Part shown: piece by piece, positions 17,153-27,047 of the stretch
Layout of the letters: the number at the start of each line of letters is the position of its first letter
Numbering within the stretch: the stretch's first letter is position 1
IMG/VR virus record: IMGVR_UViG_3300044209_000031
Coordinates: 1-27,047 of that record
Reading direction: 5' to 3' (one strand)
Source of the DNA: a virus
Lineage: Duplodnaviria > Caudoviricetes
Length of the DNA stretch: 27,047 nt
Notes under the pieces: generated by a model
Databases searched by the model: none
What the model saw: the letters and a program-made list of their open reading frames with translations, nothing else
Told to the model about the DNA's origin: nothing
Made by a program: the position numbers and the translations under genes

Positions 17153-17247
17153 TATACTTCAATCGCTCAGTAGCATGTGCTGCCCCCGGCAAATTGGGTC
17201 GCCAAGTGCGCTGGGTTCTCCATGTGAGCCGGCACATGGAGTCTATT
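17153..17247 (+). ncRNA. Candidate small structured RNA convergent on the MuF-PBECR2 gene (with -10 TATACT and terminal hairpin)
   Basis: TATACT at 17153-17158, a multi-stem region at 17166-17215, and a 9-bp hairpin CTCCATGTG/CACATGGAG at 17218-17241 followed by TCTATT. Expression is not demonstrated. Confidence 0.35.
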
Positions 17248-18505
17248 CCTCCCGCCTGTACAGCCTCACCCCCACCCGAACATCCTGTTCATCCGTGATC
17301 ATCTGGAAGGTCGTTGTACCTGTCCAGCCATTGTCCCCTCGCTCGAATACCGCCAGCAGCGGCTGATCATGCCCATCCACTACGAAGCGGGTGACATAGC
17401 GACGGCGCACGACAGCCACCTTCTCGCGGTAGTACCACTCCAGCCTCACCCAGATTTCATCAGGGTCACGCAGGGCTTCTGCCAGCATGGCCATGTATTT
17501 GCCCCGGCCCTGCTTGTCGATCTTCGAGAGGACATCGCGGCCACCCTTGGTGAACAGCTCATTGCCGATCACCACGCGCTCGCCAACGGCATCAGTGAAG
17601 ATGACGGGTTCATCCAGGGTGGCACCGAAGGGCTCAAGAAAGGCTTTTGCCATGGCCGCGGGCTGTTCAGACGCTGGTATGTCGGCCAGATCGAGTAGAG
17701 GCACGGGCGATGGCCGCGCAGTCGGCAACGGCTCATCGGGCAGTCGATTCGATACGCCTGGGCCGCTGGTTGCCCCCGAGATATGTGCCGGTGGCTTGTC
17801 CGGTGGCGGGATGGCTGCGGACAGCCGGCTGCGCCCCGGCGTGTACTCGAACCCCGGATCAACACCCTGCGGTACCTGCACCACACGCGGGCCGTTCGGG
17901 CTGCGCTGGCCGATGGTGTGCGTCTCCATCACCACCTCGGGGGCCTTGTCCGGACCGGACTTGCCCAGGCGCTGCAGGTCGCGCTCGGACAGCGCGCGGA
18001 TCGAGCACTGGCAGCCCCAGCCATTCGGCGGGAAATGCTGCTGCCACCATGGGTCGTCCCAGCGCAGCACCATACCGTTCCAGGCTTCATGCTGCGGGCG
18101 CGGGTGCTCCACTGCATCGCTGTGGATGTACTGCCAGTAGGGCCGCTGCTCACGCACGGCCATCAGCTGCTCATGGCGGCCCGCCATGTAGCTGCTGCGC
18201 AGGTTGGTCTCGTAGATCACCCGGCTGCGCCAGTTGCGACCACCGTTGTAGTCCCAGCCGTGTTTGGCCACGATGCGGTCGAAGTCCTTGCGGAAGTCCT
18301 CCAGCGTCGAGCCGCCGTCGATGGCCTTCTGCACTGCAGTGCGAAAGTCAGCCACCAGATCATCCCGGTTTGCACCGGCCACCACGAAGGCCCAGTCATG
18401 CTCCTGGGTGTAGATATCCGTCCAGCCCTGCGTCGGCAGGTTCAGTTTGCGGCGAAAGAACGCCTCCTGTTCGGTAAAGCTCAGCGACTCAGCCGTTATT
18501 GCCAC
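17243..18505 (-). CDS. Minor head protein MuF (gp30/F) fused to C-terminal PBECR2-like nuclease domain, 420 aa
   Basis: Start refined to GTG 18505 (RBS GGAGG). MuF motifs IYETNLRSSYMAGR, RPQHEAWNG and PPNGWGCQC. C-terminal LAEALRDPDEIW...RRRYV.RF...GWTGTTTF...RVGVRLYRR as recalled for PBECR2. Confidence 0.85.
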   Translation of the reverse strand: MAITAESLSFTEQEAFFRRKLNLPTQGWTDIYTQEHDWAFVVAGANRDDLVADFRTAVQKAIDGGSTLEDFRKDFDRIVAKHGWDYNGGRNWRSRVIYETNLRSSYMAGRHEQLMAVREQRPYWQYIHSDAVEHPRPQHEAWNGMVLRWDDPWWQQHFPPNGWGCQCSIRALSERDLQRLGKSGPDKAPEVVMETHTIGQRSPNGPRVVQVPQGVDPGFEYTPGRSRLSAAIPPPDKPPAHISGATSGPGVSNRLPDEPLPTARPSPVPLLDLADIPASEQPAAMAKAFLEPFGATLDEPVIFTDAVGERVVIGNELFTKGGRDVLSKIDKQGRGKYMAMLAEALRDPDEIWVRLEWYYREKVAVVRRRYVTRFVVDGHDQPLLAVFERGDNGWTGTTTFQMITDEQDVRVGVRLYRREE

Positions 18506-20066
18506 CGGCGGCCTCCTGCAGCACGTCGTAGCGGCCACGCAGGGCAGCAGCGGCCAGCGCGTGAGACATAGCCTCAGCGTACTGATCCAGCGTCATGTCC
18601 GGCAGCAGTTCGGTCAGACCATCGCGGATCTGCTCCAGGCTCTCGGCGTCATCCACCAGCGCGCGGATCTGGTCGATCCACTGATCGGTGGCTGGTCGCA
18701 TTACCTTGGCCAGCGCAGCGCTGGTATCGGCCGGACGCTGGGCAGTGGCGGCGGCCTGCAGGGGCTGCTGCGCGCCTGGTGTGGCAGCCACCGGCACAGC
18801 CTGCAAGATCTCCTCGCCCTCAGCCGGCTCAGGGATGGCCAGCCGCTCCTGTGCCCACTGTCGAGGGATGCGCAGGCCGATGCCAGCCAGCTTCGGCAGG
18901 CTGTCGGCATAGGCCGTCAGGTCTTCCGGCTCGCTGATATCGAAGCGCAGACGCGGGCAGCGCTTCCAGTCGCTGACCCAACCATTGAGCAATGCGATGG
19001 GGTAGATCAGATCGCGCGACAGGGTGGAAGCAATCTGCCGGGCATCGGCGTCGCGCAGGTCCATGCGCACCTCGTTGTGCACGTTGCCCAGCGCATTGGT
19101 GCTGCTGGCCCCATCGGCCTGACTGGTGAGGGTTCCGCCGAGGATGGCCTTGGACTGGGTACGCTCGCACCAGCTGATCATCAGCTCGAACGCCTTCGGG
19201 TCACCGGTAGCCGCGTCCAGGAAGTCGAGTTCCATGCCGCTGGGGATGATGCCGGAGGCGCGGTGCCCCAGCTGCGAAAGCGCCCGCAGCAGGGTCAGCT
19301 TGTCCTTCTCGCTGGAGCCCGACGGGTACTTGCCCAGTCGCATCGGGATGCCGTAGATCTCCAGGAACTCGGCCAGATCACCCACCGAGTAGTTCTTGAA
19401 CAGGAACGGCCAGGCCAGCACACGGAACAGCGCCGAGCGCTCCAGGTAACCCGACTTGGCCTTGTGCTGGTGGGTGATCCAGCCGAACGGCTGCAGCGGC
19501 TCGCCACCGCCAGGCCCACGCAGGCGGATCTCCTGACGGTAGCCGCGCACCACGGTGAACCAGCTCTGCGGCCGGTGCTCGATCGAGGCAGGCAGCCAGA
19601 TGCCATCATCACGGCCCCACTCCAGCTCTAGGTTGGCAAAGCCCTTGCCGATGCCATCGGTCACGTCGAACAGCATGCCCTCGAAGTCATCCAGCCCCTG
19701 CAGGTGCTCGTACAATGCCTCGGCGGCCTTGCGTTCGGTAGCCGATGGGTTGTTCGGTGGCACGATGTCCCAGTCCAGCCCCAGCAGCGCGCGGCGGCGC
19801 TTGCCTATCTCGGACATGATGTGGCCGTCCTTCTCCTCCATGTCTTCGAACAGATCGGACTGGGCGGCCAGATCGCCCTGTTCCGCCGCATCCATGATGC
19901 TGGCGAGCTTCGAGGGCGTCAGGCCCCGGGTCGGGTGGCCCTGCCACTCCTGGTGCAGACCGATCATGGTTGCCGTCTGCGGCTCGGCCAGGCGGCCGGT
20001 ATCCACGATGCCGCCACTGGTATTGAGGATGCGGCCGAGTGCGGCACGCAGCTTGTGCATCACCAT
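18489..20066 (-). CDS. Portal protein (Mu gp29 / DUF935), 525 aa
   Basis: Motifs HPTRGLTPSKLA, LFEDMEEKDGH, FLEIYGIPMRLGKY, SKAILGGTLTS and ALGNVHNEVR. Confidence 0.93.
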   Translation of the reverse strand: MVMHKLRAALGRILNTSGGIVDTGRLAEPQTATMIGLHQEWQGHPTRGLTPSKLASIMDAAEQGDLAAQSDLFEDMEEKDGHIMSEIGKRRRALLGLDWDIVPPNNPSATERKAAEALYEHLQGLDDFEGMLFDVTDGIGKGFANLELEWGRDDGIWLPASIEHRPQSWFTVVRGYRQEIRLRGPGGGEPLQPFGWITHQHKAKSGYLERSALFRVLAWPFLFKNYSVGDLAEFLEIYGIPMRLGKYPSGSSEKDKLTLLRALSQLGHRASGIIPSGMELDFLDAATGDPKAFELMISWCERTQSKAILGGTLTSQADGASSTNALGNVHNEVRMDLRDADARQIASTLSRDLIYPIALLNGWVSDWKRCPRLRFDISEPEDLTAYADSLPKLAGIGLRIPRQWAQERLAIPEPAEGEEILQAVPVAATPGAQQPLQAAATAQRPADTSAALAKVMRPATDQWIDQIRALVDDAESLEQIRDGLTELLPDMTLDQYAEAMSHALAAAALRGRYDVLQEAAGGNNG

Positions 20067-23755: not shown

Positions 23756-24361
23756 TCAAGCATCTTCCCGGATACTTGCCATGAATGCCCGCTGCTTCTC
23801 ATCCACCATGGCAGCGAGTTCGAAGTGGTGCACTTCGTAGATCTGGAAGGGCAGCAGTAACGTGCGCACAAGCGACAGCGACAGGAAGCCTGTACAGACG
23901 GCAAACAGTACGTTGATGACAGTGGTGTCAGACGACACGTTTTGTGCCACCAACCACGCCAGACCAGCCAGAACACACGCGACATGAACCACGAGGGTCA
24001 GTGCCTGCGAGAACAGCAGGTAGGTGATCTTCTCAACATAGGCAGAGGCCTGCTCGACAGACAGCGTGTCAGCCCCTGACGTCCGTCCGGTGAACAGCAT
24101 CAGCGTGACCATGAAGCCTGCCAGCACAGAAACCAGCGTCATGATTGCCGTGATTACATCCTTGGTGGACTTCACCTGATCTGGAGTCATGCAGTTGGCC
24201 AGCCACCATCCCAGGTAGCCGCCGAGCAGCAATGGCACCAACGCAGCAAAGATCTGCTTCAGCCAGAAATGCGAGGTATTGGTGACCACACGGAGCATCT
24301 GATGGGCAGCTGATGCTGCACTCTGCATCTCGTCAGGCACCAACCAATCTCGCAGTTTCAT
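23756..24361 (-). CDS. Four-TM integral membrane protein (candidate RexB-like effector), 201 aa
   Basis: Four hydrophobic segments (IFAALVPLLLGGYLGWWL; ITAIMTLVSVLAGFMVTLMLF; LLFSQALTLVVHVACVLAGLAWLV; VINVLFAVCTGFLSLSLV). Starts 1 nt after the upstream stop. Confidence 0.75.
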   Translation of the reverse strand: MKLRDWLVPDEMQSAASAAHQMLRVVTNTSHFWLKQIFAALVPLLLGGYLGWWLANCMTPDQVKSTKDVITAIMTLVSVLAGFMVTLMLFTGRTSGADTLSVEQASAYVEKITYLLFSQALTLVVHVACVLAGLAWLVAQNVSSDTTVINVLFAVCTGFLSLSLVRTLLLPFQIYEVHHFELAAMVDEKQRAFMASIREDA

Positions 24362-24362
24362 G

Positions 24363-25337
24363 TCATTCGGCTTCCATCTTCTTGACGGTTTTCAGAGTGC
24401 CGTCGGTCTTGATCGGCCCCTGCTTGCTCGGGTCGCGCAACTCTACCAGATACTCCTTCATGGCAGTCTCAATCTCGGTTACCGCCGGGCGTCCATCCGG
24501 CGTGAGCTGGATCTTTACCGGCTTGCGCTCTCGATACTTGGTCAGATCAGAAACGCCGCCACCCTCTTTGAACGACAAGGTGACTGAGGCCAGGAACTCG
24601 GAGTCAGCCTCTTCCAGCACCGCCAGTGCATCATCTTCGTCCAGAGTCTCGTCAGCGCCGGCCATCCATGAAACCATGCAACGGTTGGTGCCTTGAACCT
24701 GACCCTTCATGTCTCCCAGCGGCCTTGCAAACCGACTTGTCTGCCCGCCGACCTCATGCACCAGCGATGCGGTCACCTTGCTGATGCCGCCACGGCTGTT
24801 GATCAGGGCATGCAGATCCGAAGACCCGATATCGGACAGCTCAAGAACGCCATGGCCATCAGCAGAGCACGCCTTGATGAGTACCCGCAGCATCTTGGCA
24901 AGGCCACCTACACCACCTCCCCCTGCTACTGACTCGACGATCAGGATCTGACCATAGGCCAGGCAGCGGTAAGTCAATACCAGCTCGCTCGGCTGCCCGT
25001 CATCCGCCTTCAGATCAACCACCTGGATGGCTGCCTGCGCACTGGTCATATCCGGTGCGATGGCTTCAGGCACATGCCCCTTGGTATACGCACACACCGT
25101 GAACAGCACCCCATGTTTCAAGGTGGTGTGGTTGTTGATGAACAGACAGTGGGTGCCATCCTTGATACCTCCATTGCCCTTCGGTTTGGGACAGTGACGC
25201 TGCCCAACTGTCTGACCAGACAGCATGATCTTCAGGATTTCATCCTCGATTCTCGGGGGCTGCCAGTCCTTCGGCGTGTTCCGTGCCGGCTTGTAACCGA
25301 CCGCTTTTACAACCAGGGTTCTTGATGTGGTGTTCAT
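24363..25337 (-). CDS. Soluble hypothetical protein (candidate RexA/DUF4747-like sensor), 324 aa
   Basis: Start refined to MNTTSRTL (ATG 25337, AGGA RBS, just after the CsrA-like gene). No TM segment. Coupled to the 4-TM gene. The family assignment is inference. Confidence 0.65.
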   Translation of the reverse strand: MNTTSRTLVVKAVGYKPARNTPKDWQPPRIEDEILKIMLSGQTVGQRHCPKPKGNGGIKDGTHCLFINNHTTLKHGVLFTVCAYTKGHVPEAIAPDMTSAQAAIQVVDLKADDGQPSELVLTYRCLAYGQILIVESVAGGGGVGGLAKMLRVLIKACSADGHGVLELSDIGSSDLHALINSRGGISKVTASLVHEVGGQTSRFARPLGDMKGQVQGTNRCMVSWMAGADETLDEDDALAVLEEADSEFLASVTLSFKEGGGVSDLTKYRERKPVKIQLTPDGRPAVTEIETAMKEYLVELRDPSKQGPIKTDGTLKTVKKMEAE

Positions 25338-25353
25338 GTGTATTCCTGATATT

Positions 25354-25557
25354 TCACTCCCCCAACTCCCCCCGCCAGATATCCAGCTCATCCGGAGCGC
25401 GGATGGCCAGGCGGACTTTGCCGGCGTGGAGTTCGGTGACGGTGATCTCGATGCCTTCTTCCATCAGCCAGCGCAGGGCTTCCTGCGGGTCGACGTCATC
25501 GGCAACTTGCAGCTGGATGGTCTCGCCTTCCCGGCGAGTGAGGATGAGGTTTCCCAT
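25354..25557 (-). CDS. csrA: CsrA/RsmA-family translational regulator, RsmN(RsmF)-type with internal helix insertion, 67 aa
   Basis: MGNLILTRREGETI...IEITVTELHAGKVRLAIRAPDELDIWRGEL matches the CsrA pattern L.LTRR.GE.I...VR.GI.AP....I.REE. An extra segment DVDPQEALRWLMEEG resembles RsmN. RBS GGGGAG. Confidence 0.85.
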   Translation of the reverse strand: MGNLILTRREGETIQLQVADDVDPQEALRWLMEEGIEITVTELHAGKVRLAIRAPDELDIWRGELGE

Positions 25558-25609
25558 GGTTGCACTCCCTTGCGCATGATCTTGATGAGTTACTTGTCCG
25601 GCAGTTGGG

Positions 25610-26119
25610 TCACGGGCTCAGCACCACTTCCCGGGCTTCACCGCCGTTCACTGATACCGCCTGCATCAGGTTGCCGCCCTGCAGCGAGTAGCCGACCTGC
25701 CAGGTGATTGAGGTTTCAACGAAGAACTCGCCATCGGCTACATCGCCGAATGCAAAGCGGCCCTGGGCATCACAGGTGGTCTTGCGGACGTACTGGGCAA
25801 ACTCGGCAGGGTTCGGGGTGAACGTCACAACCCTGTAGGCGGGGTTGTAACCCTGCTGGGTATTGCCATAGATCACTGCGACACGCTCGGCGGCGTAGGC
25901 GGTTTTCGGCAGCAGGGTCACTGGCAGGCCGGCACAGGTCACCACGCCACCGCCGTTCTGGCGGATGAGAGCACTGCCGGTGATCATATTCACGCCGCGC
26001 TGGGTCATGGCGCGGGCTTCCTGGGCATTGAAGCTGGATTTCAGGTTGACCGTTGTCGGTGCACAGCCAGTGAGGGCGGCGCAGGCCAGTGCAGCAGCAG
26101 GTAGAAGTCCGAATCGCAT
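25610..26119 (-). CDS. Lipoprotein with Ig-like/carboxypeptidase-regulatory-like beta domain, 169 aa
   Basis: True start MRFGLLPAAALACAALTGC (ATG 26119, RBS AAGGAG) with lipobox LTGC. Motif TTCDAQGRFAFGDVADGEFFV. Confidence 0.8.
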   Translation of the reverse strand: MRFGLLPAAALACAALTGCAPTTVNLKSSFNAQEARAMTQRGVNMITGSALIRQNGGGVVTCAGLPVTLLPKTAYAAERVAVIYGNTQQGYNPAYRVVTFTPNPAEFAQYVRKTTCDAQGRFAFGDVADGEFFVETSITWQVGYSLQGGNLMQAVSVNGGEAREVVLSP

Positions 26120-26151
26120 GCTTTGCTCCTTGTGGTTCCCGGCAGGGCACC

Positions 26152-26796
26152 CTAGAAAATGATCTTCCCGACCAGCATCCCGGCCGCGAACATGCCCCAC
26201 AGGTACAGCGGATACCGGGTCAGCAGCATCTCCAGCGTGCTGCCTTTGCCGGCCGGGGCTGCCTGTGGGCGGTTGGTGTGTGACTGCGGTTGCAGCCGCT
26301 GAAGGTGGTCCAGCACGCGCTGCAGCTGGGGGCGCTGCAGGGTGGCGAGCTGGGTGCGGCCGAAGGTCAGCTCGCAGTAGTTGTTCATCTCGGCGCGGGC
26401 GGCCTTTTCGTCGGCCAGGCGCAGGATCTTGCCGGTGAGGCGGCGCTTGTCGGCCTCGTCCTGCAGCTGGTCGAGGCGGCGTTGCAGCACGCTGCGCGCC
26501 TGGGGGAACTGGCCGGCGGTGATGTCGGCAATCTGGGTGACGCCCAGTTCGGCAAAGACCTTGCGCCAGATCTCCTTGGAGTCGGCGCCCAGCTCGCTGC
26601 ACTTCAGGCCCAGCTCGTACAGCGCGTTGCGCTGCGCCGGCACCAGCGGGCGGTTGGCCTGCTCATCCTGCGGGTTGGCATGGGGGCAGCCCAGGCTGAT
26701 GTGCCCAGCCTGCACCATGGTCAGGTTGTGCTTGCGCGCATCCTGATAGTCGCGCCCGGCGACCCGGTTGTTGCTGCCTTCAACGCCGACATCCAT
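26152..26796 (-). CDS. Membrane-anchored protein with N-terminal NRVAGRDY motif, two helical repeats and C-terminal TM helix, 214 aa
   Basis: RBS GGAAGGTGG. C-terminal YPLYLWGMFAAGMLVGKIIF. Internal repeats LGVTQIADITAGQF and FGRTQLATLQRPQL. Confidence 0.8.
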   Translation of the reverse strand: MDVGVEGSNNRVAGRDYQDARKHNLTMVQAGHISLGCPHANPQDEQANRPLVPAQRNALYELGLKCSELGADSKEIWRKVFAELGVTQIADITAGQFPQARSVLQRRLDQLQDEADKRRLTGKILRLADEKAARAEMNNYCELTFGRTQLATLQRPQLQRVLDHLQRLQPQSHTNRPQAAPAGKGSTLEMLLTRYPLYLWGMFAAGMLVGKIIF

Positions 26797-26847
26797 CCGC
26801 CACCTTCCGTTGATTCCCTGGCCTGCTGCTGGCTATCCCACCCGCGC

Positions 26848-27047
26848 TCACTGCTTCTCTTTGTAGTTCCTGCCCGCCACCCGGTTGCCGTCGCCGCTGA
26901 CGGTGACGCCGCCGGTAGCCGGTGCCTGGCCGGCGAGCAGCTGGGCCAGCACGCCCTTGCGTGCGGCGGCATCCATCCCACGGTACAGCTCCAGCATCAG
27001 CAGCTCATCGGCGGGCAAACCGGCAGACGTCTGCCGGTTTGCATCCT
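26848..27047 (-). CDS. 3' end of probable prophage repressor (XRE/CI-like), truncated by window edge
   Basis: Translated by hand: ...DANRQTSAGLPADELLMLELYRGMDAAARKGVLAQLLAGQAPATGGVTVSGDGNRVAGRNYKEKQ*. The L..DE..L...YR.....R helix pair is typical of the C-terminus of short phage XRE repressors, and the position matches the B3-type repressor. The HTH itself is not in the window. Confidence 0.6.
   Translation of the reverse strand, partial: DANRQTSAGLPADELLMLELYRGMDAAARKGVLAQLLAGQAPATGGVTVSGDGNRVAGRNYKEKQ
27015..27042. repeat. 28-bp perfect palindrome
   Basis: GCAAACCGGCAGAC|GTCTGCCGGTTTGC, read directly, with no spacer. Confidence 0.9.

Follow-up and report, generated by a model that had tools for sequence, protein, structure and literature searches.

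Bacterial amyloid signaling sequences (BASS1-10) are short motifs described in Bell/NLR gene pairs (Dyrka et al., 10.1101/2020.01.06.895854; training sequences in PMC8086366). According to the accessible parts of these sources, the motifs comprise about 25 residues, are rich in G, N, Q, V and I and are poor in K, P and L. Another pair, Bab/Agp (BASS11, E. coli ECOR25), is prophage-borne and adjoining in a proteobacterium and also has a shared C-/N-terminal motif. Its killer, Bab, is of the Bell type, and its sensor, Agp, is a TPR-GreA/B-PIN protein; neither HTH nor repressor is mentioned in the available text of that paper (10.1101/2024.11.07.622273). In both systems, as far as the accessible text goes, the protein with the C-terminal motif is encoded first and is the controlled one, and the protein with the N-terminal motif nucleates (10.1101/2020.01.06.895854; 10.1101/2024.11.07.622273).

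We analyzed a related arrangement in a viral contig of 27,047 bases, the whole of which is referred to as the window. As in BASS pairs, the product of the first gene of this phage pair ends with a G/N/V-rich motif that recurs near the start of the product of the next, collinear gene; gaps between the genes are short, and the motif is occasionally doubled. The phage pair differs in that there is no NLR or TGP receptor (the partner, designated P0001, is a 214-aa Flk_N protein) and no Bell/HeLo-like, TIR, CHAT or hydrolase effector, the tail carriers being HTH regulators in 65 of the 71 proteins scanned. In addition, BASS hosts are filamentous bacteria, whereas the phage pairs belong to phages of proteobacteria. 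Thus, judged by its sequence, the pair has the BASS layout and is not a member of a BASS system. This agrees with the first-pass annotation, which saw a repressor-like and a membrane-anchored protein instead of an NLR and an effector: the pair consists of a likely XRE repressor and a predicted membrane protein, with no NLR or Bell domain.

Two motif classes are used below, class A (V-x-G-x-x-N-R-x-A-G-R-D-Y/F) and class B (F-x-G-x-V-G-Q...G-x-I-x-N, or a GQY variant). In the part of the training set that was covered, class A resembles by eye the family C01, which from its size of 210 is probably BASS1: both have a beta strand, S-G-x-G and then AGRD. However, C01 reads S-G-x-G-R-phi-Y-Q-A-G-R-D and class A S-G-x-G-N-R-phi-A-G-R-D, one residue shorter and without YQ. 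Class B is similarly alike, by eye, to C02 (probably BASS2), and NRVAG had no match in the training sequences covered (PMC8086366). Membership in the RHIM, PP or BASS3 groups was rejected, as there is no central G-phi-Q-phi-G and the columns of 80 pairs show G-x-x-N-R-phi-A-G-R-D. Of the broad amyloid-motif likeness proposed in the first-pass annotation, the part concerning bacterial motifs held, with BASS1 the closest by eye, and the RHIM part did not.

Three further systems are relevant. SinR/SinI, CapH and DdrO are XRE regulators that are controlled via a helical region at the C-terminus and are inactivated by a hairpin mimic or a protease, and we know of none that carries a matched beta tag. 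They share with the phage repressor an HTH plus a helical hairpin, although all fold matches had E > 0.001. RexB of phage lambda is a membrane protein, and Rex also excludes phages. In the lambda cI-rexA-rexB operon, accessory genes are co-transcribed with the repressor, and RexA binds CI and aids the lytic switch; no shared-motif tag is described in the available part of this report (10.1101/2021.04.19.439022). On that partial text, RexA is the nearest functional precedent, being encoded in the same operon as the repressor, binding to it and promoting lysis. No Rex homology of P0001 was detected in Pfam, PHROGs, NCBIfam or PADLOC. Finally, Flk (Fluke) of enterobacteria is, in the accessible text, a cytoplasmic protein with an Flk_N domain and a C-terminal membrane anchor, features also found (the anchor as a prediction) in P0001; Flk has 333 aa, against 214 aa in P0001, and acts on the flagellar export gate (PMC13344023). 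Orthology of P0001 to Flk was rejected on account of this length and of a score of 71 bits versus a cut-off of 353, and long Flk-type relatives begin with a proline-rich MQP... end without the motif.

Repressor and partner genes in the window

The window contains the late genes of a Mu-like phage, all encoded on the minus strand, among them those for Mu gp27, terminase, portal, gpF, protease I, head T, gp36 and tape measure. The two ORFs of the pair are separated by 51 nt (Table 1). The repressor ORF, which at its 5' side runs off the contig (last base, 27047), ends with GVTVSGDGNRVAGRNYKEKQ and a stop codon, and the partner ORF starts with MDVGVEGSNNRVAGRDYQD. Tail and head are identical at 9 of 14 aligned residues, and six of these nine residues are encoded by different codons. 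Both the shared pattern on adjoining ORFs and four synonymous codon differences had been reported in the first-pass annotation; we found the pattern on the minus strand in both ORFs, and all four differences are among the six.

Table 1. Features of the repressor-partner locus, with positions in the window
Feature	Positions	Strand	Remarks
XRE-family phage repressor gene (likely), 3' half	26848..27045	-	46% identity to complete relative; HTH-bearing 5' end beyond contig end
Predicted two-helix hairpin, putative CapH/SinR-type oligomerization region	26935..27018	-	model of relative L012; PADLOC capH match residues 33-127, E 8e-6
Repressor tail motif GVTVSGDGNRVAGRNY, class A	26863..26910	-	low confidence, unstructured in monomer model of relative
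Partner gene P0001, 214 aa: head motif, Flk_N domain, predicted C-terminal membrane anchor	26152..26796	-	
Partner head motif MDVGVEGSNNRVAGRDY, class A	26746..26796	-	pLDDT < 50 in monomer model
Flk_N-like helical region, residues 43-181	26254..26670	-	NF007987 E 9e-20, 71 bits vs cut-off 353; PF27202
Predicted C-terminal transmembrane helix, residues 197-213	26158..26208	-	helix 196-213 in model; hydropathy peak only 1.62

When a relaxed motif pattern was applied to all six frames of the window, only the tail and head sites matched, compared with 0.005 matches per window in 200 shuffles, and a loose pattern gave no match in 2340 shuffled 800-nt stretches. A chance origin of the motif pair was rejected on the basis of these controls. 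An assembly artefact was also rejected, as pairs occur in other loci and two contigs, X1 and X3, cover parts of the region. The public contig X1 is identical over 26313-27032 and is possibly the source of the window. None of the aligned contigs supplied the upstream half of the repressor gene that is missing here. The relative X3, aligned to 26831-27000, has nine differences, and the two listed within the motif are synonymous by codon reading. A promoter and terminator scan gave no signal above chance.

The upstream ORF is likely the C-terminal half of an XRE-family, probably lysogeny, repressor. Aligned over 72 columns, its 65-aa fragment shares 46% identity (E 3e-19) with the C-terminal half of L012, the nearest complete relative, in which an HTH_3/HTH_31 domain is present. 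Among 78 tail proteins of at least 110 aa, 71 were scanned after seven near-duplicate or flank-cut ones were omitted; 65 of them matched HTH profiles (HTH_3/HTH_31/Phage_CI_repr) and the other six matched no family, which, in relatives, supports the repressor-like nature first noted for this protein. The S24 self-cleavage peptidase was listed for none of 77 repressors scanned, and repressors without the tail are too short to hold an S24 domain. The model of L012 consisted of the HTH, a two-helix hairpin (helices 77-88 and 91-103) and a low-confidence tail; a Foldseek search with the repressor model yielded no match at E <= 0.001. The late-gene side of the repressor is seen in the window, and the divergent ner-like/transposase early side was seen only in relatives (B3, KS10, BcepMu, L001 and L051).

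In the model of P0001, the head is disordered (pLDDT < 50, residues 1-40); after it come a helical core, modeled with confidence, and a hydrophobic helix at the C-terminus. The membrane anchor assumed in the first-pass annotation is supported as a prediction by this model and by a hydrophobic C-terminal end that is conserved across the partner family. Since P0001 has no hydrophobic N-terminus, its head would face the cytoplasm. The first three-helix module of the core (residues 51-114) resembles ORF6C and the C-terminal domains of Sak, NinB and Red-beta; the best VIA match, to 8qe9, gave Z 7.8 with an rmsd of 1.6 over 60 residues, which is below the caution line of the tool (Z 8) and is a lead only. 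ORF6C was matched in 4 of 24 relatives (best E 0.0095), and there were further weak links of the core to GemA and an Ant family. Foldseek with the partner model found no match at E <= 0.001, and a single-sequence search of genome contigs with P0001 found no loci.

Some other minus-strand genes of the window are of note as well. A 325-aa DUF4747/DUF6731-like protein (24363-25340; Atlas TM 0.6-0.7) is followed by a hydrophobic 201-aa protein (23756-24361), both inserted before the late genes. PADLOC had no match for this pair; we presume that such a combination of a soluble and a multi-TM protein could be a RexAB- or Kiwa-like defense moron. A CsrA-family protein (25354-25557; Pfam E 1e-12) is located between a probable lipoprotein and the DUF4747-like gene. 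In X3, which joins 25560 to 26155, the partner and CsrA-like genes are kept and the probable lipoprotein gene between them is absent. The Mu gpF head morphogenesis protein (17243-18538) has a C-terminal PBECR2 nuclease-like domain.

Distribution, modularity and co-variation of the motifs

Searches of viral and genome contigs with the class A DNA pattern alone detected at least 163 loci, at least 117 of them distinct. Among the matches listed, 107 of 117 distinct loci had a tail and a head by the union of two relaxed patterns (86 pairs by one and 88 by the other). The 10 unpaired loci among these matches were L127, L131, L145, L182, L189, L197, L204, L214, L217 and L221, and about three of the ten are probably chance matches. 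In L221 (1234-3039, Halonatronum saccharophilum), the class A motif lies about 80 residues from the start of an NB-ARC + TPR protein, before the NB-ARC, and this links the motif to NLR-type proteins. Named hosts of class A loci include Pseudomonas, many Enterobacterales, Marinobacter, Thauera and Limnobacter. The pair, with a frameshifted partner, also occurs in a P2-like E. coli phage, and in a sample of 401 genomes of the class a match was found only in the seed genome. The class A core has about 14-16 residues with 18% G, 13% N, 9% V, 15% R, 2% each of Q and I, 1% K, 0.1% L and no P, a composition that is partly fixed by the pattern. There is a consistent asymmetry between the two sides, with G-S-G-N in the tail and G-D/E/N-N/Q-N in the head.

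Comparison of tail and head codons in 80 pairs gave pS 0.85 and pN 0.30 (part of pN being fixed by the pattern), i.e., synonymous sites are saturated, and codons shared by tail and head were not above a GC-matched null (p 0.10). A recent DNA duplication or gene conversion was rejected on these grounds, and the earlier proposal, made from a few codons, that conservation acts on the protein is supported over the 80 pairs.

The 70 complete partners among the matches listed comprised 42 Flk_N-type proteins, 19 Zn-ribbon+TM proteins and 9 others; 60 of the 70 passed a hydropathy cut-off of 1.9 and none had a hydrophobic N-terminus. The head motif, as seen in these predictions, is modular and sits on several unrelated membrane proteins. 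Six loci (L209, L030, L240, L246, L248 and L271) have two head-bearing partners per repressor, and the repressor of L209 has two motif copies. Gaps of 2-20 nt or overlaps were found in most relatives. About 270 nt separate the tail from the head at L101 and at L116:1540-1830, where a short intervening ORF starts with a decayed remnant of the motif. The 81-aa partner in L111 (1555-1800) combines, by eye, the motif with a helical hairpin of the repressor type and lacks an HTH, which recalls SinI-type antirepressors.

In Burkholderia, Janthinobacterium and Nitrincola records, a class B scan revealed this layout as well; here inserted genes more often separate the partner from the repressor, and some orphans occur. 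Because matches to the class B pattern in genome contigs are mostly due to chance, only rows with an HTH or Flk_N profile match were used. For 24 class B repressor tails, the head was adjacent in 10, further on in 6 and absent within at least 1 kb in 4, and 4 had too little flank; one of the four without a head (L308) has a divergent head by eye.

The pair also occurs in cultured phages. In Pseudomonas aeruginosa phage B3, ORF18 bears the tail and ORF20, a membrane protein not of the Flk type, bears the head; Ps59 has both halves as in B3. Class B or divergent versions are present in BcepMu (gp17/gp18) and KS10 (gp13/gp12), with two motif copies in the BcepMu gp18 partner. Seven B3-like phages were inspected, out of 53 records listed: two had both halves (B3 and Ps59) and five had neither (Fc02, Ps56, Fc22, H72 and JBD67). 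In these five, the repressor ends directly after the hairpin and the next gene is not a partner. A counter-example is Komp_PAO1_1, in which the tail is present and neither of the two following ORFs has the head. According to the available part of a study of Fc02, the cloned repressor alone blocks infection, and in the lysogen the repressor transcript extends over the next gene (PMC9936078). As the Fc02 repressor alone is sufficient and sister phages are without both halves, the tag and the partner are an add-on and not core immunity. The module is accessory in B3-like phages.

Co-variation of the motifs within homologous pairs, which the first-pass annotation had suggested as a check, was analyzed in Pseudomonas. 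A profile of 73 relatives detected 58 loci. Leaving out L022, where no upstream gene is visible, and L058, which is truncated, and adding the window gave 57 pairs, 48 of them distinct. The motif class agreed in all 48 (9 A/A, 35 B/B and 4 none/none), and motif scores with the own partner were 48.1 versus 33.6 for permuted partners, a value not reached in any of 100,000 permutations. The class changed at least six times on the partner-core tree and four times on the repressor tree. Independent contrasts were few and agreed in 4/4, 2/2 and 3/3 cases, with p values of 0.125-0.5, none reaching 0.05. At a finer level, 17 of the 35 class B pairs combine a GQY-type tail with a non-GQY head, which argues against fine matching, and within class A the own-partner identity was 8.64 versus 8.43 of 14 in a GC-matched null (p ~0.005, mostly due to one column). 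The four none/none phages (class C: L006, L010, L051 and L052) keep the Flk_N partner with the motif on neither protein, and thus the partner body can exist without the tag. The class C repressor ends in a different helical domain. The class C partner starts with a helix followed by a beta-prone IKxKGNxxNINFGTQ, which is a second motif in some class A partners.

Literature searches, with subscription papers largely outside their coverage, found no description of a repressor/membrane-protein motif pair. In a term search of amyloid-motif papers, HTH did not occur in the text available, and repressor and phage were also absent where looked for. The pairing is real, widespread and modular, and apparently undescribed in print.

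Possible roles of the shared tag

It is very probable, in our view, that the repressor tail and the partner head touch through the tags; this judgment sums over the reading preferred below and over the defense and tether alternatives. The two tags are matched, are lost together and switched together, appear to be under selection at the protein level, and both are predicted to be cytoplasmic and disordered when alone. The near-identity of the two sides, the pseudo-repeats and the BASS likeness point to beta-arch stacking as the mode of contact.

The reading that we tentatively prefer is that the partner nucleates a beta co-assembly that inactivates the repressor and so provides an SOS-independent route of induction. 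Tail and head would be matched, short, beta-prone tags that stack in a BASS-type cross-beta (beta-arch) assembly. The repressor and the partner would be co-expressed in the lysogen; the membrane protein would cluster on a signal and recruit the repressor via the tag; and recruitment beside the oligomerization hairpin would pull the repressor off its operators and inactivate it, leading to SOS-independent prophage induction with the partner as input and the repressor as output. The gene order and motif position match those of Bell/NLR and Bab/Agp, which would place the repressor in the controlled slot and make the varied membrane proteins the inputs. It also favors this reading that ORF6C, which the partner core resembles, occurs in phage antirepressor-type proteins. 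The SinI-like look of the L111 partner, the class A motif on the NB-ARC-TPR protein of L221 and the lack of a listed S24 domain count in its favor too, although tail-less repressors could not accommodate S24 either. On the other hand, small two-TM partners resemble pore-type effectors as much as sensors, and the class A core is shorter than the 25 residues typical of BASS and is Arg-rich (15%). Orphan tails, as in Komp_PAO1_1, and the Flk_N partners of class C, which carry no tag, also speak against this reading. A wider proposal, which we make with more reservation, is that Mu-like and P2-like proteobacterial phages may wire the repressor to interchangeable membrane sensors by an amyloid-signaling tag. 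Such a plug-in, self-propagating induction switch would have a transcription factor as its effector in place of a death domain, and could also set off other prophages in the same cell that share its motif class.

It is conceivable, if somewhat unlikely, that the pair is a defense module, with the repressor as sensor and the membrane protein as killer. An incoming phage or a rival antirepressor would cluster, cleave or titrate the repressor, and this would template the head, oligomerize the partner and depolarize the membrane (abortive infection). The experimentally studied amyloid-signaling pairs, as described in the accessible parts of the literature, do end in cell death, and the partner gene occupies an accessory slot directly behind the repressor; in Fc02, the transcript covering this slot is made in the lysogen (PMC9936078, available part). 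Moreover, 27 of the 70 complete partners among the matches listed are small Zn-ribbon or other TM proteins, and the multi-partner loci are explained equally well by a single trigger acting on several effectors and by the reverse. However, the 42 of 70 that are Flk_N proteins with a single C-terminal anchor, and those without any anchor (KS10 gp12, L183 and L137), fit pore formers poorly; PADLOC matched neither P0001 nor nine other partners; and the motif positions are reversed relative to known receptor/effector pairs. A discrete tether, an unlikely explanation in our estimate, would replace propagating amyloid by a small stoichiometric beta-sheet or a few-rung solenoid, with which the partner would hold at the membrane a pool of repressor, or of prophage DNA bound by it, either as a buffer or for delivery to a membrane protease. 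Regulators are known to be sequestered at membranes (as in Mlc-PtsG), translational coupling is tight, the motif is short and charged, and the consistent tail/head asymmetry suits a defined hetero-interface. Yet such interfaces would seldom need near-identical sequences on both sides, and the double motifs of the L209 repressor and the BcepMu gp18 partner recall the pseudo-repeats of BASS and HET-s.

All of these readings assume contact between the two proteins. That each tag instead serves its own protein (self-assembly, or a protease or host-factor signal), or that both bind a third factor, is improbable. The likeness of tail and head would then stem from an old duplication and their co-variation from linkage. 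Tail and head adjoin in the DNA and can move as a single cassette, which speaks for this explanation and against the co-assembly that we prefer; within-class matching is weak, and orphan tails and heads exist (for class A, 10 of 117 unpaired among the matches listed, including the few probably due to chance). Nevertheless, both halves are jointly lost in B3-like phages, the class is also matched where unrelated genes separate the partner by 130-1300 nt, sub-variants such as GQN[IV][YF]GN (L243 and L251) are matched on both sides, and saturated synonymous sites also argue against it.

Implications for Mu-like and P2-like prophages

New in these data are that the module is accessory, as sister phages are without both halves, and modular, as the head occurs on unrelated proteins. 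Phage B3 on PAO1 is a cultured phage that carries the pair, and its tail-less sisters Fc02 and Ps56 are natural controls. To our knowledge, the natural induction signals of Mu-like and P2-like prophages are largely unknown, and their repressors are without a RecA-triggered cleavage domain. A matched tag that couples the repressor to exchangeable membrane proteins would be a candidate mechanism for induction or for a guard function. If it is of the amyloid type, the tag would extend amyloid signaling, known from the accessible literature to end in cell death, to gene regulation.
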